Of a stretch of 18,152 bases of DNA, positions 2,425 to 18,152 are shown piece by piece (within the stretch, counting starts at the first letter, position 1; each line of letters opens with the position of its first letter). Position numbers and translations under genes: made by a program. The DNA is from a virus (Duplodnaviria; Heunggongvirae; Uroviricota; Caudoviricetes). The notes below the pieces were generated by a model, which saw only the letters and a list, made by a program, of their open reading frames with translations, was not told where the DNA came from and made no database searches. The stretch is taken from positions 1 through 18,152 of the IMG/VR virus record IMGVR_UViG_2645727555_000018, one strand, 5' to 3'.

Positions 2425-2460
2425 CCGTAGGGGTGTTACGGGGGATGGAATCAGGAGTTG

Positions 2461-2494
2461 AATAAATACGAAAAAGGAGGCGACACCCCTCCTT
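2461..2494 (-). terminator. intrinsic terminator at the 3' end of the G-poor noncoding segment
   Basis: Stem AAGGAGG/CCTCCTT (2474-2480 / 2488-2494) with 7-nt loop, followed on the minus strand by UUUCGUAUUUAUU. Confidence 0.5.
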
Positions 2495-3335: not shown

Positions 3336-3370
3336 TTTTCTTATTGGTATAAACAACGTTAACCTATTGA
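3336..3370 (-). promoter_or_regulatory. degenerate copy of the promoter module (TTGTTTTCTTATTGG half-dyad)
   Basis: Matches the right half of the module (CCAATAAGAAAACAA on the minus strand) but has lost the second dyad arm and has no SD or ORF behind it. Confidence 0.3.
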
Positions 3371-3485
3371 TATTTAAAGGTGTGATTGCAGGTATGGAAG
3401 AAGAGTAGTGGCGATCAACGGATTCTTATAGAAAAGAATCAAATTGTGACCGCCATTATCAACTGATTGATTAAGCTAATTACAC

Positions 3486-4715
3486 TCAAACATCCCCGTT
3501 CTTAATCCACTGCCTGACTTGCTCGTCTTGTGCGACTTCTTTCTCATGTTTGGCAATATACAAGTCTGGCAATAGGGGTGGAGCGAATTCAGGCTCTGTC
3601 GCACGCCACTTTTCATATGCGTCACGCATGGATTTCTCAACATTCCAATGCTCCAACTCTTGGTATTCAATCGGCCAGTTATCCTGCAATCTCTTCACTG
3701 CATTAGCCAGGTCGTATCGGAAGTAAGGATTAAGACCAATGAAATTACCAGCCAGCATGTCATCAACCTCCTTCACTCTGGCAATCTTAGAAAACTTACC
3801 AATAGCAATGTTGAGGTCCCAATCTGACACGAACAACAAAAGTGCTGCAAATGCCAGAAACTTAGCTTCCCCGTATGCTCTGTCGCTAACCGTTTTTGTC
3901 TGAAACTCAATGTAATTGCCCATCACAAAACTAGTAAGCTTACAGGTCTTACTTATCTCGTCCTCCAAATGCGATGGATCGAGAATTGTGCGGTCACGAT
4001 TATTGTTTATGTGTTCTAAGATTACAGCAATGTCTCTATGTGAGACTGAAATTTCACGCAATTGCTGGAGAGTCTTGATGTGAACTCTTAGCACCTCTTT
4101 GTCAATCGCACGCTTCCAAGAAAAACCAGGCACAGTAACCTGAATGGGCGCGAAAGGTAGAATATCAGGAGTTGTCCATGCTAGATATGCATCACGTAAC
4201 CCACTAATATAATAAAGCCAGTCTAAATGCTCGCTTTCTAACCATATTTCAAATGTGGAATCCTTTCGCTTATTGAAGAACCATTCCCTCATCTGCCACA
4301 TTTTTTCTTGAGTAAATATCCCTTCCTGTATGCCGGCACAGACCAGCTTTCGTATTACCTGCGAATACTTTGTTCGATCTTTTGTGAATGAGACAAGGTG
4401 CTGCTTCACCTCAGATGTTAGTCTATCTCCATAGAAATCACATGATGGATGATGGCCTTGACCATCTTCACCGGTAAATCTGAAATGCGCCTTCTTGTGA
4501 TAGCCACCATTCCTAGTGGCTCTAACGAACGAACCACCTCCAACTTTGCAAATGGGGCAGATGATATCGTCACGGGCAATAGCATGAACCGAGCTGTCAT
4601 CTAAATTCTTTAGCGCCAAGTACTGCTCAGGATCGACTTCTTTTTGTAACGATTTTGAAAAAGCGGTATCAGTCATTCCAAGCTCCGAGCAAGGGGTTAT
4701 TTGTTCAATTATCAT
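3486..4715 (-). CDS. hypothetical 396-409 aa protein with N-terminal Cys/His zinc-ribbon-like motif; AT-rich cargo gene
   Basis: Long ORF. Motif CPICK...(29 aa)...HHPSCDF. ATG at 4676 has a GGAG SD, ATG at 4715 has none. GC content visibly lower than neighbours. None of the shared promoter modules upstream. Confidence 0.6.
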   Translation of the reverse strand: MIIEQITPCSELGMTDTAFSKSLQKEVDPEQYLALKNLDDSSVHAIARDDIICPICKVGGGSFVRATRNGGYHKKAHFRFTGEDGQGHHPSCDFYGDRLTSEVKQHLVSFTKDRTKYSQVIRKLVCAGIQEGIFTQEKMWQMREWFFNKRKDSTFEIWLESEHLDWLYYISGLRDAYLAWTTPDILPFAPIQVTVPGFSWKRAIDKEVLRVHIKTLQQLREISVSHRDIAVILEHINNNRDRTILDPSHLEDEISKTCKLTSFVMGNYIEFQTKTVSDRAYGEAKFLAFAALLLFVSDWDLNIAIGKFSKIARVKEVDDMLAGNFIGLNPYFRYDLANAVKRLQDNWPIEYQELEHWNVEKSMRDAYEKWRATEPEFAPPLLPDLYIAKHEKEVAQDEQVRQWIKNGDV

Positions 4716-4846
4716 TCGGAATTATTTACTGTCTCGCCCAGTTTCACGTCATTTTATTCCCTAGTCTAGCTTTTCTAGGGTATACAGCTTATTACAAGCT
4801 CCTCATTATTAACTGTTTCCGTAACTCATTGATCCGCTTATACACT

Positions 4847-5146
4847 CTACCAACACCAGCACTCAAGCCCTTCAACGATCGGCGCACCACAATCAAAATG
4901 TACAGAGTCAAAGCCTACATCAAGTACTTTCTGAATGTTAGCAATCGCGCCTTCGGATATACCATATCGACGCAAGTCGTCTTTCCAGACATCATCCTGT
5001 AACCCGGCGTGGACAATACAACCGCCATCAATTTGTGAAACCCAATCCAGCTCATTGCTTGCGATCATGAATCGGCGAGCATCTTCCTCTGATGTATGAG
5101 ATGAACTGATCAATGCCACCTGGTAGGCTTGGGTAATGTTCAACAT
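4847..5146 (-). CDS. hypothetical protein (about 100 aa)
   Basis: GGAG 9 nt upstream of ATG(5146); dual-dyad promoter module immediately upstream. Confidence 0.5.
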   Translation of the reverse strand: MLNITQAYQVALISSSHTSEEDARRFMIASNELDWVSQIDGGCIVHAGLQDDVWKDDLRRYGISEGAIANIQKVLDVGFDSVHFDCGAPIVEGLECWCW

Positions 5147-5232
5147 TTCAACCACTCCGAAACAATTTGTTTTCTTATGTGGCTTATTATCTCAATCAAC
5201 AAAAGGTAGAAAACAAATTGTTTTAGGGCTTG
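5147..5232 (-). promoter_or_regulatory. dual-dyad promoter module: dyad 1 (5209-5224), extended -10 TGAGATAAT, dyad 2 (5158-5173), then SD
   Basis: Minus strand reads CCCTAAAACAATTTGTTTTCTACCTTTTGTTGATTGAGATAATAAGCCACATAAGAAAACAAATTGTTTCGGAG. It aligns almost base-for-base with 14040..14115. Confidence 0.45.
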
Positions 5233-5254
5233 TGTAAATCAGGAGGGATTGTGT

Positions 5255-5288
5255 CTATATGAAAATGCCCAGCGTGTTGCCGGGCATT
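5255..5288 (-). terminator. metG intrinsic terminator
   Basis: Imperfect stem AATGCCCAGC/GCCGGGCATT followed on the minus strand by UUUUCAUAU, 20 nt past the metG stop. Confidence 0.5.
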
Positions 5289-5307
5289 GCGAACAGAGGT
5301 TGCTTAA

Positions 5308-7341
5308 TTACTTAACCTGGTGGCCAGGTTTAGCACCAGCATCCGGGCTTAACAGGAAGATATCTTTCCCGCCGGGGCCAGCAGCCATCACCATGCCTTC
5401 AGAGATACCGAAGCGCATTTTACGCGGAGCCAGGTTAGCCACCATAATGGTGTGACGACCAATCAGTGCCTGTGGATCTGGATAAGCGGAACGGATGCCT
5501 GAGAAGACATTACGCTTTTCACCACCGAGATCCAGCGTCAGGCGAAGCAGTTTGTCAGAACCTTCGACAAACTCCGCGTTTTCAATCAGCGCTACACGCA
5601 GGTCAACTTTGGCGAAGTCGTCAAAGGTGATGGTTTCCTGAATCGGGTCGTCAGCCAGTGGGCCAGTTACCGGTGCAGCTGTGGCTTTCACTTCTTCTTT
5701 GGATGCTTCCACCAGTGCTTCCACCTGTTTCATATCGATACGGTTATACAGTGCCTTGAACGGATTCACTTTATGGCCCAGCAGCGGTTGCTGGATACCA
5801 TCCCAGGTCAGTTCTGTATTCAGGAATGCTTCTGCACGTTCAGTCAGTTTCGGCAGTACCGGTTTCAGGTACGTCATCAGCACGCGGAACAGGTTAATGC
5901 CCATAGAGCAAATCGCCTGCAGATCGGCATCGCGTCCTTCCTGCTTCGCCACCACCCACGGAGCCTGTTCATCGACATAGCGGTTAGCCAGATCAGCCAG
6001 CGCCATGATTTCACGAATCGCTTTACCAAATTCGCGGCTTTCCCATGCTTCACCAATCACTTCAGCGGCATCAGTAAAGGTTTTGTACAGTTGCGGGTCA
6101 GCCAGTTCGCCTGCCAGCACACCGTCAAAACGCTTATTGATAAAGCCCGCGTTACGGGACGCCAGATTCACCACTTTGTTCACGATATCGGCATTCACGC
6201 GCTGAACGAAATCCTCCAGGTTGAGATCGATATCATCAATGCGCGAAGAGAGTTTCGCAGTGTAGTAGTAACGCAGGCTGTCAGCGTCAAAATGATTCAG
6301 CCAGGTGCTGGCTTTAATAAAGGTGCCGCGAGACTTGGACATCTTCGCACCGTTCACCGTCACATAGCCATGAACAAATAGGTTGGTCGGCTTGCGGAAG
6401 TTGCTGCCTTCCAGCATGGCAGGCCAGAACAGGCTGTGGAAGTAAACGATATCTTTACCGATGAAGTGGTACAGCTCGGCGGTGGAGTCTTTCTTCCAGT
6501 ATTCGTCGAAGCTGGTAGTGTCGCCGCGTTTGTCGCACAGATTCTTGAAGGAACCCATGTAGCCAATCGGTGCGTCCAGCCAGACGTAGAAATATTTGCC
6601 CGGTGCGTTCGGAATTTCAAAACCGAAGTACGGCGCATCGCGGGAGATATCCCACTGTTGCAGGCCAGATTCAAACCACTCCTGCATTTTGTTTGCCACC
6701 TGCTCCTGCAACGCACCGCTGCGGGTCCATGCCTGCAACATTTCGCTGAAAGAGGGCAGATCAAAGAAGAAGTGTTCGGAATCACGCATTACCGGCGTAG
6801 CACCAGAAACTACCGATTTCGGCTCGATCAGTTCAGTCGGGCTGTAAGTCGCGCCGCAGACTTCACAGTTATCGCCGTATTGATCTGGCGCTTTACATTT
6901 AGGACAGGTGCCTTTTACAAAACGGTCCGGCAGGAACATGCCTTTTTCCGGGTCGTACAACTGAGAGATAGTGCGGTTTTTAATAAAACCGTTCTCTTTC
7001 AGGCGAGTATAGATAAGCTCAGACAACTGACGGTTCTCTTCGCTGTGCGTCGAGTGATAGTTGTCATAGCTGATGTTAAAGCCTGCGAAATCAGTCTGGT
7101 GTTCCTGACTCATTTCGCCAATCATCTGCTCCGGTGTGATACCAAGTTGCTGTGCTTTCAGCATGATCGGCGTACCGTGGGCATCGTCGGCACAGATGAA
7201 ATTAACCTCGTGGCCGCGCATTCGCTGGTAACGAACCCAGACATCAGCCTGGATGTGCTCCAGCATATGGCCGAGGTGGATTGAGCCGTTAGCGTACGGC
7301 AGCGCGCACGTCACCAGAATTTTCTTCGCGACTTGGGTCAT
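5308..7341 (-). CDS. metG: methionine--tRNA ligase (677 aa)
   Basis: N-terminus [29 protein letters not shown] with the class I HIGH-type motif (HLGH), the KMSKS motif (GAKMSKSRG) and a zinc-knuckle CPKC...CEVC. ORF extends to 7470 but the conserved start is ATG(7341). Confidence 0.97.
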
Positions 7342-7498
7342 AGTAGGCATTACTTCTTTGTAGTGAAAAGGGGCTTGATAGTAACAAAATGGCCTTATGT
7401 CTGCCATGTGATAACAGCATTTCTCATAAATGATTAAATGTCGCAGCTGGAGTACACTACAAGGCGACAATTGCGCAAATTAAAATAAAGGAGACGGG
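7342..7498. promoter_or_regulatory. divergent metG / apbC promoter region
   Basis: 157-bp AT-rich intergenic spacer between the two divergent start codons; AAGGAG SD precedes the apbC ATG. Confidence 0.5.
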
Positions 7499-8599
7499 AT
7501 GAGCGAGTCCAAATCGCCGGATGCCCTGAGAGCAATGGTAGCCGGTACGCTGGCTAATTTTCAGCACCCAACCCTGAAACACAACCTGACTACGCTTAAA
7601 GCGTTACACCATGTTGCGTTGATGGATGACACACTGCATGTCGAACTAATCATGCCTTTCGTGTGGAATAAGCCTTTTGAAGACCTGAAAGAGCAATGTA
7701 GTGGTGATCTGCTCCGTATCACTGGCGCAAAGGCTATTGACTGGAAGCTGTCGTACAACATTGCCACGCTTAAGCGCGTCAAAAACCAACCAGGCATTAA
7801 TGGTGTTAAGAATATTATCGCCGTAAGCTCAGGCAAGGGCGGTGTAGGCAAATCGTCCACAGCAGTAAACTTGGCACTGGCTTTGGCTGCTGAAGGTGCG
7901 AAAGTTGGTATTTTGGATGCCGATATCTATGGTCCATCAATTCCAACCATGCTGGGCGCGGAAAACCAACGTCCAACCTCACCTGACGGTACTCACATGG
8001 CACCTATCATGTCTCATGGCCTGGCAACCAACTCTATTGGTTATCTGGTCACCGACGACAATGCAATGGTGTGGCGTGGACCGATGGCCAGCAAGGCGCT
8101 GATGCAGATGTTGCAGGAAACTCTATGGCCTGATCTGGACTATCTCGTTCTCGATATGCCGCCGGGCACTGGTGATATTCAGTTGACGCTGGCGCAGAAC
8201 ATTCCTGTAACTGGTGCGGTTGTGGTAACTACGCCGCAAGACATCGCGCTGATCGATGCGAAGAAAGGCATTGTGATGTTCGAAAAAGTCGAAGTGCCGG
8301 TACTAGGTATCGTCGAAAACATGAGTGTGCATATTTGCAGTAACTGCGATCATCACGAGCCAATTTTTGGCACCGGTGGCGCACAGAAACTGGCCGAGAA
8401 ATACAACACGCAGTTGTTAGGCCAAATGCCACTTCATATCTCTCTTCGTGAAGATCTGGATAACGGAACACCAACCGTTATTAGTCGTCCAGATAGCGAA
8501 TTTACGGCTATTTATCGTGACCTCGCAGATCGCGTTGCTGCCCAAATGTATTGGCAAGGTGAAGTAATACCTGGCGAAATCGCATTCCGCGCAGTGTGA
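7499..8599 (+). CDS. apbC: iron-sulfur cluster carrier ATPase ApbC/Mrp
   Basis: P-loop GKGGVGKS, CSNC motif, C-terminal ...GEVIPGEIAFRAV; full-length 366-aa ORF. Confidence 0.95.
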   Translation: MSESKSPDALRAMVAGTLANFQHPTLKHNLTTLKALHHVALMDDTLHVELIMPFVWNKPFEDLKEQCSGDLLRITGAKAIDWKLSYNIATLKRVKNQPGINGVKNIIAVSSGKGGVGKSSTAVNLALALAAEGAKVGILDADIYGPSIPTMLGAENQRPTSPDGTHMAPIMSHGLATNSIGYLVTDDNAMVWRGPMASKALMQMLQETLWPDLDYLVLDMPPGTGDIQLTLAQNIPVTGAVVVTTPQDIALIDAKKGIVMFEKVEVPVLGIVENMSVHICSNCDHHEPIFGTGGAQKLAEKYNTQLLGQMPLHISLREDLDNGTPTVISRPDSEFTAIYRDLADRVAAQMYWQGEVIPGEIAFRAV

Positions 8600-8624
8600 T
8601 AAAAAGGTGGTGCAATGCACCACC
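8599..8624 (-). terminator. intrinsic terminator downstream of the umuD'-like gene, in the apbC 3' spacer
   Basis: Stem GGTGGTG/CACCACC (8606-8624) with loop CAATG, followed on the minus strand by UUUUUAUC. Confidence 0.55.
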
Positions 8625-8636
8625 TAAACAGTTCTC

Positions 8637-9026
8637 CTACATCACAGGACAATCATCAAACTCGCCACTTCTTGCGTCGTTGATAATGTGAGTGATCACA
8701 CCAAACACGGCATTGCTGCCCGTGCATCCATCATCATCCTTTGGCAATGCTTCCTTCTTACCAGTTCTTAAATCCTCCAGATGCTGACGTGGATACTTCC
8801 GGTATCTTTTTACGCGATATTCCCCATCCAGAGCACATACAAGAAGAGATCCATCAACAGGAGTCAGTGAGGAATCGACCACCAGCAATGCACCCTGCAA
8901 TATTCCCTCACGATGATGACTATCAGCCGCCCTCATGAAGTAGGTCGCTGAAGGATGTCTAATTATCTGCTGATCAAGAGAAATACGGCTCTCAGCATAA
9001 TCCGCCGCAGGAGAAGGGAAGCCCAT
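8637..9026 (-). CDS. UmuD'-like S24 peptidase-family protein encoded without the N-terminal arm (humD-like)
   Basis: Begins MGFPSPAADY, i.e. at the position of the UmuD Cys24-Gly25 autocleavage site. Ser (AADSH) and Lys (EYRVKRY) of the catalytic dyad are present. C-terminal VFGVITHII matches UmuD VFGVVIHVV. No umuC-like gene is adjacent. Confidence 0.85.
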   Translation of the reverse strand: MGFPSPAADYAESRISLDQQIIRHPSATYFMRAADSHHREGILQGALLVVDSSLTPVDGSLLVCALDGEYRVKRYRKYPRQHLEDLRTGKKEALPKDDDGCTGSNAVFGVITHIINDARSGEFDDCPVM

Positions 9027-9042
9027 AATACTCGCCTCTTAA

Positions 9043-9062
9043 TACTGTATATGCATACAGTA
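9043..9062. promoter_or_regulatory. LexA (SOS) box TACTGTATATGCATACAGTA
   Basis: Perfect CTGT-N8-ACAG palindrome 17 nt upstream of the umuD'-like ATG, next to an AAGAGG SD. Confidence 0.8.
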
Positions 9063-9116
9063 TATGTTGAAGCTATATATTTTTGAACTCTATCTCTTAA
9101 AAAAGATGTTAATAAG

Positions 9117-9359
9117 ATGCTAACTATTGAAAGGCATAAATATATACAATTCCAACAAACGTTATTTTTAACAAATTTTTACTTCCCATTGACTTTCCCA
9201 GACTCCTTGTCTGAACTAATGTCCGCGGAAACCACTTTTTCCTTTACGAGTTATCCACAAAGTTATGCACTTGCACATAGTCTCTATAAATCCTATCTTA
9301 ATTCGCAAGACACTGATGTTGCGGTATTGTGGGTACATTTGGTTAAAAACGGACATTAA
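9117..9359 (+). CDS. questionable small ORF (80 aa) in an AT-rich spacer
   Basis: Only plus-strand ORF outside apbC not overlapped by a minus-strand gene; followed directly by a terminator. No convincing SD, atypical composition. Confidence 0.2.
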   Translation: MLTIERHKYIQFQQTLFLTNFYFPLTFPDSLSELMSAETTFSFTSYPQSYALAHSLYKSYLNSQDTDVAVLWVHLVKNGH

Positions 9360-9360
9360 A

Positions 9361-9389
9361 AAAGCCCAGTTGACTAGGCTGGGCTTTTT
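9361..9389 (+). terminator. intrinsic terminator (plus strand)
   Basis: Stem AGCCCAG/CTGGGCT (9363-9369 / 9379-9385), A-run upstream and UUUUU downstream. Confidence 0.55.
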
Positions 9390-9390
9390 A

Positions 9391-9417
9391 AAAGGAAACA
9401 GAGTTTGCGCCTCTGTT
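9391..9417 (-). terminator. intrinsic terminator (minus strand), back-to-back with 9361..9389
   Basis: Stem AACAGAG/CTCTGTT (9397-9403 / 9411-9417) with loop TTTGCGC; the minus-strand reading is followed by UCCUUUUAAAAA. Confidence 0.4.
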
Positions 9418-9424
9418 CCTGAGC

Positions 9425-9619
9425 CATAAGTATCTGGCGACTGAGCTAAGATTAACCGAATGTACTGGATTCATCAAGAAACGTTGAGCCGTCATGCTAG
9501 GTAATAATGACCATTTACCAAACATCGTTGTTCTCAAAGAAGATTTAAGTCCAGGTTTTTGGTGACTCTAAAACCTTACCTTAACTCGAAATCGTGCCGT
9601 AAGTATCTGGCGACTACAG
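9425..9619. repeat. direct repeats in noncoding DNA: TAAGTATCTGGCGACT (9427-9442 and 9599-9614) and AAATCGTGCCG (9589-9599 and 9708-9718)
   Basis: Exact 16-bp and 11-bp direct repeats in an ORF-free stretch between two terminators. Confidence 0.5.
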
Positions 9620-9785
9620 ATATTGCAACTGCAAAGGCAAGCTCAAAGGTATTTGCAGCTAGGTGCGATAAAACTAAGTGAGGCCTATAGTGCTTAACTT
9701 ACTTTTCAAAATCGTGCCGCCTATGTTCGCAATCATCGAAGCGATCATTGAGTACGTCAACCAGCGCCCATAATGCTAGTTGTTA

Positions 9786-9816
9786 CCGGCCCCATCCAAA
9801 TGGGGCCATTTTATTG
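9786..9816 (+). terminator. intrinsic terminator-like hairpin
   Basis: Stem GGCCCCA/TGGGGCC (9788-9794 / 9801-9807) followed by AUUUUAUU on the plus strand. Confidence 0.45.
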
Positions 9817-9822
9817 TATTGA

Positions 9823-10494
9823 CTACATACTTTCTGATCTAATTGAGTTGTTCACTGCTCTGGCAATTTTCTCCCGCAATTGCTGCGCTCCGTGGTACTG
9901 AACCGCAATATCCCGCAACTCGTTCACCAGTTCTCTAATCTGGTGATCTTTAAGCTCATTATTTGGGTGATGGGTAACAACTCTGGTTAATTCACCCTTG
10001 TCTTTTGCTCTTACGTATGCAGCTCTTGTGCATTCGACCCATGTATTACCGCCTACATTAACTTCGTAGATTAGGCTGGACTTATCTGTCAATTCGGAAC
10101 AAATACGGGCCGTGGTCTGGCAACTAGAGCATTCGCAGTTATCGCGGAAACCGTGGTCTACTGGCTTCGGTTTCACATCATCAACTTTTTCTACCCTATT
10201 GGAATTTAAATACTTCGAAGCCTTGCTATGCCAATAGCTGGTTTTAGGATCTTGTCCATCCATCAAACGCCAGGCTTCAGCGATTAACTCATAACTAGTG
10301 ACTGTAGCTTCCTGCGCATCACCAATAAGTCGTGTAATCTCTCTTTCAAGCCGACCGCCTAACTCCGTTTTAGTGCAATGTTCTGACCAATCGCCAGCCT
10401 CAAGAAGCGCGAGAATGCTTAAAATATCGTCCAATAGAACGGTAGTATTATCGACTTCCTTCTGAAACTCACCGGCTACTGATTTATGCATCAT
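9823..10494 (-). CDS. hypothetical protein (223 aa), last gene of the coupled operon
   Basis: Its ATG overlaps the stop of the upstream gene (ATGATGA); long ORF. Confidence 0.6.
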   Translation of the reverse strand: MMHKSVAGEFQKEVDNTTVLLDDILSILALLEAGDWSEHCTKTELGGRLEREITRLIGDAQEATVTSYELIAEAWRLMDGQDPKTSYWHSKASKYLNSNRVEKVDDVKPKPVDHGFRDNCECSSCQTTARICSELTDKSSLIYEVNVGGNTWVECTRAAYVRAKDKGELTRVVTHHPNNELKDHQIRELVNELRDIAVQYHGAQQLREKIARAVNNSIRSESM

Positions 10495-11144
10495 TCGTCA
10501 TCCTCATCCGAGTCATCCTCATCACAGGATGAGAGTAGTGGGTTAGTCATTCGCCCTACTTGAGTGGCGTAGCCACGCCGACAGAGATTGCGCAGCACAC
10601 TGTATATTTCGAACATCTCGGTTCGTTCATCGCCAACATCAAGCTCAGATGCTATAGCGTGGCATTCAGTCGCGAGAGCCGATATTTTCTGAAATAACTC
10701 TGCATTATTCACTGTTCGACTCCTGCGGCGTTCTGGTAGTGGCATCCAGTGTGTGACATTGCTAATCAGACCATATTCATTAGTTTGAGGATGGTTGCCG
10801 TTATCGTCTCCGTATTTAAGACTCTCCATAAAGCCATAATGCCTATTACCATTAACGCTCACAAAGCCGTAATAAGCAGGTATAACGCCGATCTCACACG
10901 TAACCAGTAAAGGAAAACTAGTTCTCCAATTTAGCTCGCCAATTACAGGCATTCGCTCACTACAGCTTATCCAACCATCCTTAGATGCGGCTGTATTGGC
11001 ATAGGCCTTACGGTGCTTCTGTAGCTCTGCTGCAATCGCTCTCACGACTTCAACTGGTGCCCTTGCAGCAAACTCAATGTTGGTGATCAGCTCATTAAGA
11101 TATTTCTCGCTTGGGTAGCATTTCTTATTGTTAACGGTGGTCAT
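10491..11144 (-). CDS. hypothetical phage protein, DUF551-like, with acidic C-terminal tail
   Basis: Motifs GWISCSERMP and THWMPLPE resemble DUF551; C-terminus CDEDDSDEDDE; TAATG overlap with the upstream gene. Confidence 0.55.
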   Translation of the reverse strand: MTTVNNKKCYPSEKYLNELITNIEFAARAPVEVVRAIAAELQKHRKAYANTAASKDGWISCSERMPVIGELNWRTSFPLLVTCEIGVIPAYYGFVSVNGNRHYGFMESLKYGDDNGNHPQTNEYGLISNVTHWMPLPERRRSRTVNNAELFQKISALATECHAIASELDVGDERTEMFEIYSVLRNLCRRGYATQVGRMTNPLLSSCDEDDSDEDDE

Positions 11145-11329
11145 TAGGCAGCTCTCTCAACAACAAGCAATTCGTCGTAGTCATAATCAGTTTCGGAACC
11201 ATCCGTACCGAACAGAGTCACTTTGTCATTTTCCATCCAAAAAGATTTAACCGCACATTGTTGACCTTTAGATGTTATGAGCACATCACCAGGGATTACG
11301 TCTTCAGCGCGAACCTCTAGTGTTCTCAT
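11144..11329 (-). CDS. hypothetical small protein (61 aa)
   Basis: ATGA overlap upstream and TAATG overlap downstream place it inside the coupled operon. Confidence 0.5.
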   Translation of the reverse strand: MRTLEVRAEDVIPGDVLITSKGQQCAVKSFWMENDKVTLFGTDGSETDYDYDELLVVERAA

Positions 11330-11856
11330 CGTGCTGCCCCCTCTTTGGTGAAAATGCCTGCTGCAATGCTGTTTATGATGCTGTCAGTGCATGGAGTAGA
11401 AAGCTGGGCATCTCCAGCAATTTTCATGACCTCAACATCCGCATATCGAATACCGAGGTGTATCAGACCGGCTATACCTGACTTAAGTCGAACATTTTCC
11501 ATAAACAGATCTTTTTCCCGCTGTTTAGCGGCTTCCAACTCCATCGACAATTTTTCCAACTGCTCTTTATGCTTCTTGTATTCCTGATATGCGTGCCAGG
11601 ACTGACCTTTGCGCACACTATCAGTAATATCAGTAATCTGTTCTGGTGTTAGCGTGGTCAGTGGCTGTGCTGGGAAAATCAGCACTTTCCCGGAATCCCA
11701 ATCAAAACCAGCGTGAATTGACTGAACCTCAACTGATGGTGTTGAACCGATGCGACCAGGCGAATGAACAACGATCGTTACATCCATATCGCGACGATGG
11801 CTGTGGTTGTTGGACAAAATACGATTCACCAACTCAGAAAATTTGGAGAATTTCAT
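11326..11856 (-). CDS. hypothetical protein (176 aa); ORF begins at TTG 11868 but the SD-backed ATG is at 11856
   Basis: GAGG 8 nt upstream of ATG(11856), which lies 8 nt after the stop of the upstream gene. Confidence 0.55.
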   Translation of the reverse strand: MKFSKFSELVNRILSNNHSHRRDMDVTIVVHSPGRIGSTPSVEVQSIHAGFDWDSGKVLIFPAQPLTTLTPEQITDITDSVRKGQSWHAYQEYKKHKEQLEKLSMELEAAKQREKDLFMENVRLKSGIAGLIHLGIRYADVEVMKIAGDAQLSTPCTDSIINSIAAGIFTKEGAAR

Positions 11857-11864
11857 GCGGAGCC

Positions 11865-12275
11865 TCAATATGCAAAATAGACCGTTGCCACGCCGTTATA
11901 GTGATCAAACGATACGGCGTTTACTTCATAGCTGGCAGGGAGCTTCGATCCGAGAACGTATCCGGGCCACGTTTTCCATGGAATTTCTCTGCGCTCACTA
12001 TCGCCATATACCGTACATCCCAGAGAGCCTACAGCTTCATTAGAACGCGTGCCGCACGTTATGAATCCCAGATTTTGCTTACTGCTCTTAATGGTGATTG
12101 GGTGAACGCTGGCTGATGCATTAGCAGCACGCTGTGCCTGTTGGTTTGTGATATTCGCAGAGTTCGCAGCAGCTACAGCAGCCGTAGTCGCGGCGGTAGA
12201 GGCTACAATAGCTGCTGAAGCATGCACTTGTTGGATATTCACCAACAATGCCGCGACAAAAATCATCTTCTTCAC
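11865..12275 (-). CDS. hypothetical secreted/periplasmic protein with N-terminal signal peptide
   Basis: GTG start with AGGAG SD. N-terminus MKKMIFVAALLVNIQQVHASAA is a typical Sec signal with AxA cleavage site. Mature part is Ala/Thr/Ser-rich. Confidence 0.6.
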   Translation of the reverse strand: MKKMIFVAALLVNIQQVHASAAIVASTAATTAAVAAANSANITNQQAQRAANASASVHPITIKSSKQNLGFITCGTRSNEAVGSLGCTVYGDSERREIPWKTWPGYVLGSKLPASYEVNAVSFDHYNGVATVYFAY

Positions 12276-12859
12276 TTGTCAGCTCCTTTGCGAATCTGTT
12301 CCGCCCATTCTTCAAGGGATTTCTCCGCATATTCACCGGACAGGCCATCAATCGGGTGCGGTTCATTAGCCAACTCTTCTTTCGCTGACAGAATCATGCG
12401 TGTAACGTCGAAAACTTCACGTAAAGACTTATTGATAAATCCGTGGTTGAAAGCAGCAGCAAGACGGCTTGCGGTATAGTTAACCCCCTCGTTGCGAGTC
12501 TCCGCACGTACTTCAGCCAGAAAAGCATCGGTGGCTGGAGTCTCCGTCAATTCGCTAACCCAATTATCTCCGTGTTCCTCGGCACACATCGCATCGAATG
12601 CTCGCTCAGATTCTTTCAGGGCTGCATTCTCCGCCGCTAATGCGTCTCTCTGCGCTCGCAACTTCTCAATTTCGGCAGCCATGTAGTAACCAACCATAGC
12701 GAAAGTGGCGAAAGGGTAGTCAGAATCATCAGGAGATACGGAGGCCATTAGCAGACCATCGTGCATGTTCTGGCTTCCATCAGTGATGGATACCGCATAA
12801 GAATCGCTGGTTTCCCGTTTATACAATACGACGACCGGGTTCTTGATTTTCTCTCTCAT
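12272..12859 (-). CDS. hypothetical protein with central coiled-coil-like segment (possibly Ead/Ea22-like)
   Basis: Heptad-like EIEKLRAQRDALAAENAALKESERA; TAATG overlap with the upstream gene. Confidence 0.55.
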   Translation of the reverse strand: MREKIKNPVVVLYKRETSDSYAVSITDGSQNMHDGLLMASVSPDDSDYPFATFAMVGYYMAAEIEKLRAQRDALAAENAALKESERAFDAMCAEEHGDNWVSELTETPATDAFLAEVRAETRNEGVNYTASRLAAAFNHGFINKSLREVFDVTRMILSAKEELANEPHPIDGLSGEYAEKSLEEWAEQIRKGADK

Positions 12860-13401
12860 TACGATGCCTCTAACTTATCTAACTCTTTCAGCCCTTCACG
12901 TACCGCGTTCACAATGCGTTCCAGATACTGGTATTTCGGGTTTGGTACCGTTGGCCAGTCGGCATACCACGGATCATCACCAAAGAGATTCAGCAGTTTG
13001 TTACCGACGCCGAAACAACAGCAGCTTTCTTTTACGTCATCGGCGTTTTCCGCCTCGTCCCACATTTCACGAGCCAGTACGGCGTCGATTTCTCTCTCTC
13101 TTCGTAACTTTATGATTTCTGACTTCACGAAAAGCAGATTTGCATCGTTGTCATCGTCGACCGTGCTTCGCAGTTGAGAGTCGAAATAGCCGATTAGATA
13201 CTCGTTGCTGACCCGCTTAATGAACGTCTGCACATCATCACCGCCCATAGCAAACCAAGCCGCAGTCCACGCTTTTCCGTAGCAGATGATGGTGATTCTT
13301 CCCTTACCAGGTTCGTAGTTTTCAATCATCACTCGAACCGGATCGAGGCGTTCCAGATCCGTCAGCACAAAGGAAAGAACATCTATTTTTTCGACCTTCA
13401 T
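12859..13401 (-). CDS. hypothetical protein (180 aa)
   Basis: ATGA overlap with the upstream HD-hydrolase gene; long ORF. Confidence 0.55.
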   Translation of the reverse strand: MKVEKIDVLSFVLTDLERLDPVRVMIENYEPGKGRITIICYGKAWTAAWFAMGGDDVQTFIKRVSNEYLIGYFDSQLRSTVDDDNDANLLFVKSEIIKLRREREIDAVLAREMWDEAENADDVKESCCCFGVGNKLLNLFGDDPWYADWPTVPNPKYQYLERIVNAVREGLKELDKLEAS

Positions 13402-14039
13402 GCAGCCTCCAACGCGCTCCAGATCAGCGATTTGTGTTTTTCATAACGTTTGATGTGTACCGGTTTCAGAAGCGCAATACCTTCAGTGACTTTCGCCATT
13501 GCGCTTAATAGCAACGGGTGTTCTATACCTATCCTCTCCATGTACTCGACAACATCAGCGTTGGCACCAATCTCTTTGCCGTGAAAGAGTACGTCCAGCA
13601 TCAGTTCTTTCTCTGCGAGGTAGACAGCTGAAAACTCGGGATCGCGACTCACGATAGAAGAGGTATTGTCGAGCAGGTCAGCCAGCTTGATCATGCGCGT
13701 CTGCATGTCGAGATTTTGCTCCAGCTCCCGGACATTGATGATGAAACGCTGTATTCGATTGCCGTCTTCTGGCCTTGCAATGTTGGTCAGAGCCTGAACC
13801 ATTTCAGCTACGCGCTCACCGAAGTGATCACGAACCATCTCTATGGTTACATGGGTGTCTTCGACCACATCATGCAGAAGCGCCGCGATTTGCATCTCCA
13901 CGGTTCCGTCATGCAATGCAACAATCTCTCGGACAGCAACCGGGTGGTTGATGTAGTCTTCGCCGGTATATTTTCTTTTCTGACCAACGCCACCATGAGC
14001 GCCAGCGGCGAACATATGAGCTTCGGAAATACTAGACAT
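13398..14039 (-). CDS. HD-domain hydrolase of the RelA/SpoT (p)ppGpp-hydrolase type (small alarmone hydrolase-like)
   Basis: GEDYINHPVAV...AALLHDVVEDT...FGERVAEMV closely mirrors the SpoT/Rel hydrolase signature (GEPYI.HP.AV / LHDV.EDT). No synthetase domain; 213 aa. Confidence 0.75.
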   Translation of the reverse strand: MSSISEAHMFAAGAHGGVGQKRKYTGEDYINHPVAVREIVALHDGTVEMQIAALLHDVVEDTHVTIEMVRDHFGERVAEMVQALTNIARPEDGNRIQRFIINVRELEQNLDMQTRMIKLADLLDNTSSIVSRDPEFSAVYLAEKELMLDVLFHGKEIGANADVVEYMERIGIEHPLLLSAMAKVTEGIALLKPVHIKRYEKHKSLIWSALEAA

Positions 14040-14115
14040 TCTTAACTCCGTTGTTTTCTAGTTGTGGTTATTTTCACAAATAAGAAAAGGTAGAAAACAA
14101 TTTATTTAAGGCCAC
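14040..14115 (-). promoter_or_regulatory. dual-dyad promoter module for the 8-gene operon
   Basis: Minus strand reads GCCTTAAATAAATTGTTTTCTACCTTTTCTTATTTGTGAAAATAACCACAACTAGAAAACAACGGAG. Aligns with 5147..5232, including the TTGTTTTCTACCTTTT block and a TGnGAAAAT extended -10. Confidence 0.45.
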
Positions 14116-14158
14116 AACTTATGGCCTTTATTTATTCATGCCGAAGGATTTGTAGCGT

Positions 14159-14539
14159 CTAATTGCCGGATAAAATGGGGTGAGGTGCTTGCCAGTAGGC
14201 TCCACCGGTCCATGTGAACCCCATGCGAATAAGAGTGTTTATTGCGGCTTTGGTAGACTCCGATTCGACACTGGCTTTTCGAAACTCTTGAACCTCTTTC
14301 GCCAACTTGTATGTAATTGTGCAGGGGACGATTGCAGCCCAGCCTTTCTCATGACTGTTAATGACCATCTGGATGTGACCATCCAGAATAGGTTGATTAG
14401 GCATGTTATTGAAAATGTCTGCCTGTTTTTGAATGTGAAGAAAAAGCCTTGCCAGCTCCATTTGCTCACTACGAGACAAGGGATTATCAAGAGGGCTTTT
14501 TGCAAAAGCGGCTATACGCTGTGCGTCAATGCCAAACAT
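14159..14539 (-). CDS. hypothetical protein (126 aa)
   Basis: TGATG overlap with the upstream gene. Confidence 0.55.
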   Translation of the reverse strand: MFGIDAQRIAAFAKSPLDNPLSRSEQMELARLFLHIQKQADIFNNMPNQPILDGHIQMVINSHEKGWAAIVPCTITYKLAKEVQEFRKASVESESTKAAINTLIRMGFTWTGGAYWQAPHPILSGN

Positions 14540-15243
14540 CAGCGCACCTCACCATCTTTATGGCTGGAGTTAACTTCCGCCATTAAATGTCTGACGTAAT
14601 CGACAAGAGAGCCACCTGGTGGAATCTGGCATTCCTCAACTAACTGGAAGTAGATATCCGCTGCATTACGTGTATTGCTACCCGCACATATTCTTTCTTC
14701 CCGAAGTGCATGAAGCTCGTTGACCAAACGGTCACACTCTCCGTTACGCTGATCCACAACGGCCTCAAGCTCTGCGACGCGTTCACCTGGCGTCTTACCT
14801 TCTTTGCGTTGGATGGTAACGACGAAATCGCCAATTGCAGGGACGTTGTAATCCAGCTCAAGGTAGTTTTTGGCACCGCTGCGGACGAACTCACCCGCGA
14901 ACATGGTGGCGAACATTGCAGAGGCCACTTCGCCGTTGAAAAGTGACTCCAGATCTAACGGAGTACCGGCAGCAAGAGCCTCTTTTGCTGTATCCATTGC
15001 ATCCATGAACCGATCAAACTCACTAGCGCGCTTTTCCAGGTCTTTCCATTGCTCGCTCCAACGTTTGGCAACGAAGTCTATGAATGTTTTCGCGGATTCA
15101 TCAAAATTCCCCTCAAACTTAACGATGCCTTTATCAATAATGATCTGGCCTACCGCATCCTCTGCATAACCTTTCAATGTAAACTTGAAAGGAAAATCAG
15201 AATGGCCTGTGACGTTAAAATGCTCTAACTGGAGGTTGTTCAT
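14539..15243 (-). CDS. hypothetical protein (234 aa)
   Basis: Long ORF 61 nt downstream of the methyltransferase gene with no promoter module between them; probably co-transcribed. Confidence 0.55.
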   Translation of the reverse strand: MNNLQLEHFNVTGHSDFPFKFTLKGYAEDAVGQIIIDKGIVKFEGNFDESAKTFIDFVAKRWSEQWKDLEKRASEFDRFMDAMDTAKEALAAGTPLDLESLFNGEVASAMFATMFAGEFVRSGAKNYLELDYNVPAIGDFVVTIQRKEGKTPGERVAELEAVVDQRNGECDRLVNELHALREERICAGSNTRNAADIYFQLVEECQIPPGGSLVDYVRHLMAEVNSSHKDGEVR

Positions 15244-15304
15244 GTGTTTTTCTCTTATCGTTTAGTAACTACATTCTTACACAAACTAAGTAAGTATTTA
15301 CCTA

Positions 15305-16990
15305 TCATTTAACGCGTTTGAAAACGTATACGCTGACTGTGATCCCTGTGTCTTCAAACTCGTTGGTAAACGACTTCCCTCTGGCATAAACGTAATTATC
15401 CATCGTCATCCAGTCCAGTATTGGTGCAGTGCCCGGCAATACTGCTACAAGACGCCCGCCGACTTTCAGATGCCCCAGCGCAGCCATCGTGTGCTCTCTA
15501 TGACGACCAAGCGAGTACGGCGGGTTCATAACGATTTTGTCGAACTGATAACCTGCGTTGTCCTCAGACCACTTTATGAAGTCGCAGCAAATCGTGTTCG
15601 TATACCCTTTTCCACGCAGGATATCAGCGAAGAGAGGTGCGATTTCTATGCAGGTAACATCTTCCAGATCGGCGTTAATATAGGCCAGAAGATCCCCACG
15701 TCCGGCTTGAGGCTCCAGCAGCTTCTCACCAGACTTCAATTCAGTGGCTCTGGCAACGTACTCAGCAATCAAGCGTGGGGTAGGGTAGAACTGGTGTGAT
15801 TTAGTATCCGGTATTAAACCGGTAGCCACAATCGTATTTAGCGTATGGCCGATGTCATACGGGAACTGCCAGTGCTTTTTCTCCTGCACGCCGCCAATGA
15901 AGCTCAGTGTGCGCTCAAGCTCTTCCACCTGCGACTTCTGGAGAGCTGAATCAGAGAAGTACCATACGCCTTTGTCTTTGCTCAATCGCCCGTCACGAAG
16001 CGCAGTGCGAACCGGCACGGAGATCGTCTTCTGGATTAACCCGAACTGCTTTGGTGCCCGTGTTTTTGGCGCAGTTCGGCATGGCGCGGGGATTGCAGCA
16101 GGCATACTGTAAGCCAGCACCTCATTCAACTTCCAGGCCACGTCAGGATGTATTTCAAAGTGAACGTTGCCGTTCTTGAACATCTTCACGCGCATCAGAT
16201 TTCCATCGACGTTCATCCAGTCACCGGTCTGGCAGTCGTTTGCCCTATACGCAGCTGATAGCACCTCAGCAGTGCGGTTGATGGTAATAAATTCTTTGTG
16301 CGCGAAGAAATGAAGCAAGACACGCAGATCGTCGATGTAGTCCTCTTTGCGATAGTTCACGCTAACGCTGTCCCGCCAGAAATCAGAAATGCAGTCAGCG
16401 ATTATCAGCCGCTCGCTGAAACCGTTTGTCTTATTTGTCTTGTGCGCAGGACTCAGCGCCTTAAACAAGCCATACACGCGCTCAGAGAGATATTTGTGCC
16501 TGTCATTCAGCAAATTAAGCATCGTGGGTATGACCGTTTCTGCTTTGAACTCCGGTACACCAACGAACTCTTTAACCTTCATCTGGTAGCCGGTTCTGTC
16601 AGTTTTGATGACTTCCTGTTTGCCCTCTATAAACTGCTCGCGCCACTCATCTCGACGGGAAGCTGGCATGATCAGCAAAACGTTAGTCATGTCCGTGACC
16701 TTCCTCCAGTACTCGGCCCAAATATTCTGTTTCACCCATTCCAGATCGACTTTATCCAACCAACCTCGATTTAAACGCGAGCGATCTTCATCTGGTCGAT
16801 GGTTTAGTCTCAGCAGGCGATTAATCATGTTGTGGCGTTCGTCGCCATAAACGAAGTCGTGTACCTGATACATGAAGGCGATCTCTTTCTCGCACTCGGC
16901 CACGATTTCGTGGATGACATTCATTTCCTGACGATAGTCGATAGCCGTGTTTGAGCTGGCATCGTCGATGATAGAAAGGGCTGTATTCAT
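15305..16990 (-). CDS. putative N6-adenine DNA methyltransferase (gamma-class motif order) with about 400-aa N-terminal extension; no obvious partner endonuclease
   Basis: C-terminal FYPTP, then LEPQAGRGDL (AdoMet motif I), then IVMNPPYS (motif IV) about 60 aa later. Confidence 0.75.
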   Translation of the reverse strand: MNTALSIIDDASSNTAIDYRQEMNVIHEIVAECEKEIAFMYQVHDFVYGDERHNMINRLLRLNHRPDEDRSRLNRGWLDKVDLEWVKQNIWAEYWRKVTDMTNVLLIMPASRRDEWREQFIEGKQEVIKTDRTGYQMKVKEFVGVPEFKAETVIPTMLNLLNDRHKYLSERVYGLFKALSPAHKTNKTNGFSERLIIADCISDFWRDSVSVNYRKEDYIDDLRVLLHFFAHKEFITINRTAEVLSAAYRANDCQTGDWMNVDGNLMRVKMFKNGNVHFEIHPDVAWKLNEVLAYSMPAAIPAPCRTAPKTRAPKQFGLIQKTISVPVRTALRDGRLSKDKGVWYFSDSALQKSQVEELERTLSFIGGVQEKKHWQFPYDIGHTLNTIVATGLIPDTKSHQFYPTPRLIAEYVARATELKSGEKLLEPQAGRGDLLAYINADLEDVTCIEIAPLFADILRGKGYTNTICCDFIKWSEDNAGYQFDKIVMNPPYSLGRHREHTMAALGHLKVGGRLVAVLPGTAPILDWMTMDNYVYARGKSFTNEFEDTGITVSVYVFKRVK

Positions 16991-17040
16991 AATTACACCA
17001 TTAAATAATTTGTTTTCTGATTGGTGTAATTATCGCAAAC
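16991..17040 (-). promoter_or_regulatory. promoter/operator module for the methyltransferase operon: TGCGATAAT extended -10 plus dyad
   Basis: Minus strand reads TTGCGATAATTACACCAATCAGAAAACAAATTATTTAATGGTGTAATT then ATG. A 10-bp inverted repeat AATTACACCA/TGGTGTAATT (16991-17000 / 17022-17031) brackets the dyad and abuts the start codon. Confidence 0.45.
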
Positions 17041-17090
17041 TTGAAAAGGCATAAAAGCTGCATTCATAGGCGTTACAGCAGATTTAAGGC

Positions 17091-17114
17091 GTAAAAATGG
17101 GGGCTTTCGCCCCC
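17091..17114 (-). terminator. intrinsic terminator after gene 17132..17698
   Basis: Stem GGGGGC/GCCCCC with loop TTTC, followed on the minus strand by AUUUUUAC. Confidence 0.6.
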
Positions 17115-17131
17115 TGTCGACTGGTGCAGTA

Positions 17132-17698
17132 TTAGAGTGCGTATTGCGTTTTGTGCGGCTGCTTATTCAAGTCATGGCGATGCGTGAGCTCCCGCATCAT
17201 GTCTTCAAGGCGACTCTTTGTGTCGTCGAGCTGGTCGGCCATTGCACCTAAAAGCTGGCGAACGGCCATCGGATCGTCGCTGTTTAGTGATGGCATTTTA
17301 TAACCTGCTTTAGAAGACATAAGGTTGATTGCAGACATCAACATCGTTAGAGAGGATTTAAGCCCGGCAATTTCACGATCTTTGCTGGCAATAATCGTCT
17401 CACTTTTGTTACCGTCATCAGTTCCTTGAGTCTCGCTCACCATATCCAAAGTCGCTTGCAACTTATCAGCTCTCTCTTTTTCAGCAAGGTAATGAACACC
17501 GAAATGGTGTGCCAAAGCTACAATCTGAGTTGGCTCTTCAAAGGTGGAATTAAAATTAAGTATTGTAAACAGTCTCTCAAATATGGAAACGTCTTCTATT
17601 CCTCGAAGAATGGATAACATTTTGACAAGTTCATTAGCATCCATTTCTTCGAATAGGGCGTTTTGTTCATCAGCTATTGCTTTGCATTTCTCGCACAT
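17132..17698 (-). CDS. hypothetical protein (188 aa) with N-terminal CxxC
   Basis: AAGGA SD; promoter module upstream; terminator downstream. Confidence 0.55.
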   Translation of the reverse strand: MCEKCKAIADEQNALFEEMDANELVKMLSILRGIEDVSIFERLFTILNFNSTFEEPTQIVALAHHFGVHYLAEKERADKLQATLDMVSETQGTDDGNKSETIIASKDREIAGLKSSLTMLMSAINLMSSKAGYKMPSLNSDDPMAVRQLLGAMADQLDDTKSRLEDMMRELTHRHDLNKQPHKTQYAL

Positions 17699-17755
17699 GT
17701 GTTTTCCTTAATGCTTAAACAAGTTGTTTTCTTATTGGTTTTATTGTGATGTGGC
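17699..17755 (-). promoter_or_regulatory. promoter/operator module (dyad AAACAAGTTGTTTTC)
   Basis: Plus strand AAACAAGTTGTTTTCTTATTGGTTTTATTGTG; same family as 1915..1970. Confidence 0.4.
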
Positions 17756-17837
17756 ATATAAGGGGAGCAAGCTAAACGTAAAGGTGCAAACTCTCTATTT
17801 CGGTCAACGAAACACAAGGGCCAAATGGCCCTTGTCA

Positions 17838-17996
17838 TTAACACTTTGCTTTACGAACTAACGGATAAGCGAAGTAGATCGCCAAACCAATGAGGACGCC
17901 ATCAGAAATGACAGACATCATCTTTCCCGTAAAATCCACCAACACCGCCATCACCAGAAGAGCAATGACGATCACAAGCCGGAATCTCTCAAGCAT
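17838..17996 (-). CDS. small hydrophobic membrane peptide (52 aa, two predicted TM segments)
   Basis: Hand translation gives MLERFRLVIVIALLVMAVLVDFTGKMMSVISDGVLIGLAIYFAYPLVRKAKC. Start overlaps an upstream frame as TAATG. Hairpin CAAGGGCC/GGCCCTTG follows the stop. Below the 60-aa ORF-track cutoff. Confidence 0.35.
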   Translation of the reverse strand: MLERFRLVIVIALLVMAVLVDFTGKMMSVISDGVLIGLAIYFAYPLVRKAKC

Positions 17997-18152
17997 TAGA
18001 GATAAGCATCCAGTGACAACTGAAGCGCCTGGGCGATCTTTTTCAGTGCCTGCTCTTCTTGTTCATCGATAGGAATTAAAACCCCAAAAAGATTAAAAAA
18101 ACATCACAAAACGGATGTTTCTTCAACACCACTTTTGCTCATATGAACGGAA

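Follow-up and report, generated by a model that had tools for sequence, protein, structure and literature searches.

A PaSpo-type small alarmone hydrolase gene on an SSU5-like phage-plasmid of Escherichia coli

Why should a phage-like element carry a hydrolase of the SpoT type, and against what would the enzyme be directed? The question is raised by a gene at positions 13398–14039 of the IMG/VR virus record IMGVR_UViG_2645727555_000018 (Caudoviricetes), whose 18,152 nucleotides, analysed as a whole, are called the window here. An earlier note, made from the sequence alone, had read this gene as encoding a (p)ppGpp hydrolase without a synthetase domain, standing first in the operon of a mobile element behind a dual-operator promoter. 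With high probability, the product is a small alarmone hydrolase (SAH) that is catalytically competent and belongs to the PaSpo subfamily; its orthologue is PaSpo itself, from Salmonella phage SSU5, and the present copy is carried by a phage-plasmid of E. coli.

The open reading frame (ORF) has exactly the coordinates first proposed and lies on the minus strand, which had been left unstated. It starts with ATG at 14039–14037, ends with TGA at 13400–13398 and translates into 213 amino acids. The His/Asp signature ascribed to it is present in the translation as YINHPVAV and AALLHDVVEDT, within the wider motif stretches EDYINHPVAVREIV and IAALLHDVVEDTHV. Profile searches against RelA/SpoT HD models, which the earlier note had proposed as a check, bear out the assignment: Pfam HD_4 (PF13328) matches residues 8–135 (E = 1.1e-18, 67.8 bits, curated threshold 27.2 bits), and the NCBIfam model TIGR00691 (spoT_relA) is matched over its N-terminal positions 1–123 of 687 only (E = 1.4e-24). 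HD_4 and HD are the only Pfam matches of the protein, and neither the Pfam profile search nor the compact single-domain model reveals a synthetase (RelA_SpoT, PF04607), TGS or ACT domain. Because the HD_4 match is joined by a TIGR00691 match limited to this first part of the model, the protein is a SpoT-type hydrolase domain without synthetase, TGS or ACT. A sequence search of the PDB agrees, as all 22 of the matches listed are hydrolase domains of RelA/SpoT homologues (RSHs), stand-alone alarmone hydrolases or close HD-domain relatives.

The catalytic apparatus appears intact. In a HMMER alignment with human MESH1 (3nr1, where MESH1 residue numbers equal the seqres index plus one), residues R22, H32, H56–D57, E60–D61, D121 and N125 of the hydrolase correspond to R24, H35, H61–D62, E65–D66, D122 and N126, and these are its predicted catalytic residues. 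In MESH1, H35, H61, D62 and D122 are said to have been identified by Sun et al. in 2010 as the Mn2+ ligands, the other aligned residues reportedly being catalytic. The metal-ligand set His...His-Asp...Asp is complete in the phage protein (H32, H56, D57 and D121), and the loss of metal-binding residues on careful alignment, named at the outset as the result that would speak against a SpoT-type enzyme, is not seen. The residues specific to RSHs beyond the generic HD motif (R22, E60–D61 and N125) are likewise retained. In an alignment of 30 relatives with identities down to 43%, R22, Y24, T25, Y29, H32, P33, H56, E60, D61, T62, R98, K118, D121, N125 and E143 are invariant and D57 is nearly so (at least 90%).

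The AlphaFold2 model derived from this family alignment is a single compact, all-helical domain of 12 helices (pLDDT 96.2, pTM 0.92). All 50 of the Foldseek matches listed from the PDB are RSH-family chains with 18–28% identity (MESH1, the P. aeruginosa SAH, C. glutamicum RelH, a (p)ppApp hydrolase, Rel, SpoT and one ribosome-bound RelA); single-domain SAH and MESH1 chains give target-normalised TM-scores of 0.6–0.77, and no PaSpo structure is among the 50. By profile, metal ligands, RSH-specific residues and fold alike, the protein belongs to the RSH hydrolase-domain family, and with its single domain in 213 residues it is a hydrolase-only RSH, that is, an SAH. The phage-plasmid clade to which it belongs is ~35–45 residues longer than relatives of 160–190 amino acids, the additional part being the helices at 161–212.

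The more specific assignment comes from SSU5. This phage has a single locus matching the hydrolase, SSU5_099 (YP_006906731.1), annotated in GenBank as a guanosine polyphosphate pyrophosphohydrolase. The two proteins are 87% identical (185/213 residues, gap-free) and their genes 89.4% identical, compared with 74% for the gene of Klebsiella phage pJN2-26. Since SSU5 has just one such locus, SSU5_099 is taken to be the PaSpo protein tested by Jimmy et al., the accession being assigned on that ground. This full-length identity places the window protein in the PaSpo subfamily (Atkinson 2011; Jimmy 2020). Like its SSU5 counterpart, the hydrolase has a length of 213 residues, a position behind a DUF4942 methyltransferase unit, a promoter block with a hairpin and an overlapping downstream gene; unlike it, the window allele carries 28 substitutions, mostly in the C-terminal helices, and is found in E. 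coli on an element kept as a circular plasmid.

The assignment matters because the orthologue has been studied. Jimmy et al. (2020) reported that the "Salmonella phage SSU5 SAH (PaSpo)" neutralised all five validated toxic small alarmone synthetases (toxSAS), namely CapRel, PhRel, PhRel2, FaRel2 and FaRel (PMC7229694, Table 1). Expressed alone, it reverses the effects both of toxSAS that produce (pp)pApp or ppGpp and of those that pyrophosphorylate tRNA (PMC7229694). The authors treat it as a stand-alone phage SAH and propose that incoming phages bypass alarmone-mediated defence with such hydrolases (PMC7229694). The ability to neutralise alarmone-based toxins or defence systems, foreseen for the window gene, has thus been shown for a protein 87% identical to its product (PMC7229694). 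In later papers PaSpo(SSU5) is the standard detoxifier of PhRel2, CapRel-SJ46 and FaRel2; FaRel2 is neutralised already by leaky PaSpo expression, and according to the authors the enzyme acts by taking the modification off the tRNA. In vitro, tRNA with a pyrophosphorylated 3′-CCA end can again be aminoacylated after treatment with either of two related SAHs, MESH1 and ATfaRel. The best-documented target of SAHs now includes 3′-pyrophosphorylated tRNA besides free (p)ppGpp and (p)ppApp. Since the literature already covers the enzyme family, its occurrence in phages, the exact orthologue and the anti-toxSAS idea, the window gene is a correct rediscovery; it adds no new principle, and the SSU5 enzyme is already the field's standard detoxifying tool.

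Comparison with other characterized enzymes sets the protein among stand-alone hydrolases. ATfaRel (PbcSpo subfamily, Cellulomonas marina) and the SAH of Salmonella phage PVP-SE1 are likewise single-domain RSH hydrolases, and both neutralise all toxSAS tested without binding them, ATfaRel stripping the tRNA 3′-pyrophosphate in vitro. They belong to a different SAH subfamily, however, and ATfaRel adjoins its own toxin as a type IV antitoxin, whereas there is no toxin gene here. Human and Drosophila MESH1 (3nr1, 5vxa and 3nqw), which also rescues toxSAS toxicity and repairs pyrophosphorylated tRNA, gives the best structural matches and some of the best sequence matches, with the Mn2+ ligands and the R, ED and N residues aligning one-to-one; identity is 25–28%, the phage protein is ~35 residues longer owing to the C-terminal helices, and MESH1 has a reported NADPH phosphatase activity. 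The P. aeruginosa SAH (6yvc), C. glutamicum RelH (7qod) and the Bacteroides (p)ppApp hydrolase (7smg) have the same fold and are synthetase-free, but they are only 20–24% identical and are encoded by chromosomal housekeeping or immunity genes rather than by phages. The hydrolase domains of SpoT and Rel (7qpr, 6s2v and 1vj7) are the top PDB sequence matches (E about 1e-13) and share the catalytic motifs, but these long RSHs carry synthetase, TGS and ACT/RRM domains, only the first ~135 residues of the window protein align with them, and it has no regulatory domain.

What kind of element carries the gene? Positions 8600–18152 of the window match the circular E. coli plasmid pAVS0225-A (111.7 kb) at 99.6% identity, as they do some twenty plasmids like it. 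pAVS0225-A combines plasmid RepB and ParB with a full siphovirus structural set (capsid, portal, terminase and tail) and a large replication and nucleotide-metabolism set (nrdAB, thyA, dfrA51, dnaE, a DnaB-like helicase, ligase, tRNAs and metG). Since plasmid, siphovirus and replication modules occur together, the element is an SSU5-group phage-plasmid, a group defined in PMC7969092: it has the size of ~100–115 kb, the Rep/Par and siphovirus structural modules and the collinearity with SSU5 that characterize the group. The mobile element suspected from the window sequence is thereby given a name. A protein 100% identical to the hydrolase is encoded on plasmid NZ_CP027358.1, and carriers of the hydrolase are ~110-kb plasmids in Salmonella, E. 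coli, Enterobacter and Klebsiella. As a separate matter, positions 3483–5876 of pAVS0225-A (L014), the closest relative of the window, contain ISEcp1 with blaCTX-M-15, and dfrA51 is also on the plasmid; hydrolase-bearing elements are therefore vehicles of clinically relevant resistance genes. The hydrolase is common on clinically relevant phage-plasmids of E. coli, Salmonella, Klebsiella and Enterobacter, some of them with CTX-M-15.

These observations suggest how the enzyme might act. It would remove the 3′-pyrophosphate from (p)ppGpp, (pp)pApp and pyrophosphorylated tRNA CCA ends in a Mn2+-dependent reaction. Made early after entry or induction of the element, it would disarm toxSAS abortive-infection systems, for example CapRel of competing prophages in the same hosts, and would keep alarmone levels low. 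CapRel systems occur in prophages of Salmonella, E. coli, Enterobacter and Klebsiella, which are the host genera of the hydrolase. Systems such as CapRel halt phage infection through tRNA pyrophosphorylation or (pp)pApp, and a hydrolase that reverses both is an obvious viral answer.

Several points weigh against this interpretation. The literature read contains no in vitro kinetics for PaSpo itself: PaSpo was assayed by neutralisation of toxicity in vivo, and the in vitro hydrolysis data are those of MESH1 and ATfaRel. The window allele differs from the tested SSU5 protein at 28 of 213 residues, mostly in the C-terminal third. Its promoter and transcription start are predicted only, with a poor −35 region and no call by a generic scanner. 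Finally, the gene is dispensable, because this allele is missing from the site in ~122 of 158 related E. coli plasmids. The last figure comes from a search of E. coli plasmids with a 761-nt query comprising the gene and the gap upstream of it: 36 of the 158 matching plasmids cover at least 80% of the query, and the partial matches sampled consist of the gap, or of the gap and the very start of the gene.

The organization of the locus bears on expression and therefore on the choice between roles. The hydrolase lies in a co-directional early/accessory gene block, in which eight ORFs follow one another from 14039 to 9823 so closely that stop and start codons overlap or abut. The second of them, a 180-amino-acid gene (PF26211/phrog_3451; 12859–13401, minus strand), has an ATG that overlaps the hydrolase stop codon (ATGA), and the remainder of the unit (9823–12859, minus strand) consists of six more accessory genes, likewise closely packed, among them Ea22-like and DUF551 genes. 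A 119-nt gap (14040–14158) parts the hydrolase from the upstream gene at 14159–14539, and no copy of the motif described below occurs between 14051 and 5216. From the packing of the ORFs and this absence of further motif copies, the hydrolase is plausibly the first gene of an eight-gene unit. The position at the head of an operon is thus correct for the window and its lineage.

The elements of the gap follow one another on the coding strand as a stem-loop (14128–14108), AATAAATTGTTTTCT (14106–14092), TGTGAAAAT (14078–14070), AGAAAACAA (14059–14051), GGAG (14049–14046) and the ATG. All of these lie on the minus strand except the stem-loop, which has no assigned strand. The best candidate promoter of the hydrolase-led unit is TGTGAAAAT, a −10-like element with an upstream TG. 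Its hexamer, GAAAAT at 14075–14070, aligns with TATAAT in one relative (L010) and with TAGAGT in another (L006), and it is placed relative to AGAAAACAA as are the −10-like hexamers at other motif sites. The promoter-proximal motif copy AGAAAACAA (14051–14059) falls at about the predicted +1 or early leader; the distal copy AATAAATTGTTTTCT (14092–14106) overlaps the −35 region, 41 bp from the proximal one. The GGAG, six nucleotides before the ATG, is a Shine-Dalgarno sequence read from the sequence and kept in SSU5 and pJN2-26. A generic promoter scan of the gap gave no minus-strand match and a single match on the opposite strand, which is probably due to chance; the scanner missed the −10 element of the hydrolase because of the weak −35 region.

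The dual-operator promoter that had been proposed is real as a sequence feature. The repeated 9-mer, TTGTTTTCT, occurs at 14100–14092 (minus) and 14051–14059 (plus), so that an inverted pair 41 bp apart flanks the −10 element. It is found 10 times in the window against 0.35 expected (none of 200 shuffles reaches 10) and 18 times in pAVS0225-A against 1.3 expected; the window sites are 536–544, 1450–1458, 2644–2652, 3333–3341, 5167–5175, 5208–5216, 14051–14059, 14092–14100, 17010–17018 and 17724–17732. The 9-mer is part of the palindrome AAACAAnTTGTTT, and many copies lie just upstream of minus-strand start codons. On the coding strand the motif mostly takes the palindrome-containing form AGAAAACAAnTTGTT(T), the right half being degenerate or absent at a few sites including that of the hydrolase. 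There the proximal copy is only a half-site, because the Shine-Dalgarno sequence occupies the place of the second half of the palindrome.

Across 12 intergenic sites of pAVS0225-A, that of the hydrolase included, the motif lies 7–11 nt past a −10-like hexamer (GATAAT, TAATTA, TATTAT and similar), and at most of them a start codon follows 10–45 nt downstream. The other 11 sites have the same AGAAAACAA, mostly continuing as nTTGTT(T). Given this spacing, the motif would cover the predicted +1 and early leader, and at some of these promoters, including that of the hydrolase, a second inverted copy covers the −35 region. The inverted pair recurs at 40–41 bp spacing in SSU5, in Klebsiella-type plasmids and in a distant relative with a 41%-identical hydrolase, and the block from TTGTTTTCT to the −10 element hardly varies, even in pJN2-26 with its coding-sequence identity of only 74%. 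The dual-operator promoter is therefore a conserved module of this phage-plasmid group, and the recurrent motif looks like its common early promoter/operator module. We infer that the motif pair is an operator, most likely bound by an element-encoded regulator, with WP_001282576.1 of pAVS0225-A as one candidate, that would control the hydrolase unit together with about a dozen other early units; nothing relevant to an SSU5 repressor or operator was found in the literature.

Two other repeats at this promoter were considered as operators and rejected. Neither the inverted 8-mers AGTTGTGG (14060–14067 and 14112–14119), one copy of which is part of the hairpin, nor the palindrome TTGTG-N8-CACAA (14062–14079; CRP-like TGTGA-N6-CCACA) is conserved in pJN2-26, L006, L010 or the plasmids that lack the hydrolase. 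The element that is actually repeated is TTGTTTTCT/AAACAAnTTGTTT. The stem-loop AAGGCCA-loop-TGGCCTT (14108–14128) is conserved according to folding and comparison, its stem being kept by compensatory changes in pJN2-26 (GGCTA/TAGCC), with a G-U to A-U change in L013; it is probably a weak terminator or 3′-end structure of the upstream, methyltransferase-containing unit. Folded as minus-strand RNA, the 119-nt gap has an energy of −25.9 kcal/mol (z = −3.2 versus shuffles), TTGTTTTCTA pairing with TAGAAAACAA and CUUCG with the Shine-Dalgarno-containing CGGAG. The fold thus suggests that the Shine-Dalgarno sequence would be sequestered in read-through transcripts from the upstream unit, which might then translate the hydrolase poorly. 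An Rfam scan of the window returned no family.

How does a role in counter-defence compare with other uses of the same enzyme? The most serious competitor, which we regard as possible and distinctly the less probable, is that the main role lies in host physiology: host (p)ppGpp would be hydrolysed and the stringent response blunted, so that the replication and nucleotide supply of the element could run in a starved or stressed cell. This was one of the two options given in the earlier note. It calls for the same enzyme class with intact catalytic residues, it suits a plasmid heavy in replication and nucleotide-supply genes (the nrdAB, thyA, dfrA51, dnaE, helicase, ligase, tRNA and metG set listed above), and Jimmy et al. 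cite a link, perhaps not universal, between phage infection and alarmone accumulation or the stringent response (PMC7229694). However, most related E. coli plasmids keep their replication genes without the hydrolase, a pattern more in keeping with an accessory gene of an arms race than with a core physiological need. Both roles could hold at once, and damping of the stringent response is compatible with counter-defence as a second role.

A benefit to the host in the plasmid state is unlikely. The carrier would be protected from (p)ppApp-synthetase toxins injected by competitors (Tas1-like type VI effectors) or from toxSAS triggered by other phages. (p)ppApp synthetases do serve as interbacterial toxins, and the orthologue neutralises the ppApp producer FaRel (PMC7229694), but the operator-like motif shared by the early-type units would, from its place over the predicted +1, suggest repression in the plasmid state.

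Slightly less likely still is that the protein is a generic HD phosphohydrolase that acts in the cell on some other phosphorylated metabolite; for human MESH1, such an activity on NADPH has been reported. The closest structures by Foldseek E-value, among the 50 listed, are MESH1 complexes, one with NADPH and one with 3′-phosphoadenosine-5′-phosphosulfate (PAPS), and non-alarmone activity of MESH1 is on record. Against this stand the conservation of the RSH-specific R22, E60–D61 and N125, the confinement of the listed sequence matches to RSH hydrolase domains, and the neutralisation by the orthologue, in vivo, of five toxSAS of two chemistries, which needs removal of a 3′-pyrophosphate (PMC7229694).

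That the hydrolase is the type IV antitoxin of a toxSAS module on the same element, as ATfaRel is beside FaRel, is very improbable: SAHs are antitoxins in FaRel operons (PMC7229694) and the ATGA overlap with the next gene resembles a toxin–antitoxin layout, but the reading is rejected because no toxSAS gene was found on the element (no toxSAS or RelA/SpoT synthetase is annotated on the 111.7-kb pAVS0225-A, and the neighbours, including the overlapping PF26211 protein that is common in hydrolase-free prophages, have no such Pfam or PADLOC match), the neighbours vary between relatives, and Jimmy et al. treat the SSU5 enzyme as stand-alone (PMC7229694).

The variation between relatives is informative in itself. 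In the two hydrolase-less E. coli plasmids inspected, L012 and L013, the sequence is identical to the window up to ~14066, a few bases past the −10 element; beyond this breakpoint come another leader and then an Ea22-like gene homologous to window positions 12272–12859, so that both the hydrolase and the 180-amino-acid gene are missing. In the window lineage these two genes thus form a two-gene cassette inserted just past the −10 element. Another E. coli lineage (L006) has a 63%-identical hydrolase directly downstream of metG, behind another copy of the promoter block. A different order is seen in Klebsiella-type relatives and in more distant ones: the start of the hydrolase gene overlaps a preceding gene, which makes it second or third in its unit, and the DUF4942 methyltransferase gene lies downstream of it instead of upstream. 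The first-gene position is not a family property of the hydrolase, and its patchy presence fits an arms-race accessory function better than a core function.

We tentatively propose, at somewhat less than even likelihood, that the hydrolase and its downstream gene make up a mobile cassette for counter-defence, inserted on repeated occasions just past the −10 element of a reusable, regulator-controlled early promoter module in SSU5-like phage-plasmids. If so, (i) presence and absence of the cassette should track toxSAS defences (CapRel-type, tRNA-pyrophosphorylating) in the host population, (ii) the hydrolase would be the first natural anti-toxSAS counter-defence shown during infection and (iii) it might act together with the tRNA genes and metG of the element to keep translation running. 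Being common on these phage-plasmids, movable as an accessory cassette and wired to a shared early promoter/operator module, the hydrolase offers a natural system in which a putative anti-defence role of phage SAHs could be put to a direct test. New in this analysis, and secondary to what was already published, are the polymorphism of the cassette, its insertion point just past the −10 element and the shared module.

The second gene of the cassette was also considered as an obligate partner or toxin of the hydrolase, and this was rejected: it has no informative family match, its linkage to the hydrolase is confined to the SSU5/window/pJN2-26 lineage, and it is common in chromosomal prophages that lack the hydrolase. 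Given this wide distribution in hydrolase-free prophages, it is a fellow passenger rather than a partner. This 180-amino-acid protein matches the C-terminal part of PHROG 3451 (287 positions), and a 234-amino-acid protein encoded upstream of the hydrolase, at 14539–15243, matches the N-terminal part; the two parts form one protein in some phages, which suggests recombination or domain shuffling around the insertion site. Farther upstream, an orphan DNA methyltransferase of 561 amino acids (15305–16990, minus strand) joins an N-terminal DUF4942 to a C-terminal N6-adenine methyltransferase-like part, and PADLOC matches it to mad2 and Type II MTase models. No other neighbour of the hydrolase is as constant among the relatives, although the gene order flips, and the methyltransferase likely serves an anti-restriction function in the early block that the two genes share.

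A few features elsewhere in the window deserve mention. A 409-amino-acid protein at 3486–4715 (minus strand), with no NCBIfam or PADLOC match, has a conserved counterpart in SSU5 (SSU5_107); its N-terminal region is CxxC...HxxC-like. Next to it, the ~1.5 kb at 1936–3485 carry no annotated gene in the near-identical RefSeq plasmid and no Rfam match; the stretch has a GC skew of +0.24 to +0.32, an AT skew down to −0.42 at 2400–3600, several degenerate direct repeats and two promoter-motif copies, and possible readings are an origin, a long non-coding transcript and gene remnants. Positions 8637–9026 (minus strand) encode a protein of the HumD family, which is a pre-processed UmuD′-like translesion subunit as in phage P1 (full-length NF051876 match, 220 bits). 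Finally, positions 5308–8599 hold a divergent pair of metG (methionyl-tRNA synthetase) and apbC in the chromosomal arrangement, ~89.6% identical to the E. coli chromosomal copy; at this identity, and with a plasmid-borne occurrence at 223 places in the E. coli collection, the pair is an old capture rather than a recent one.

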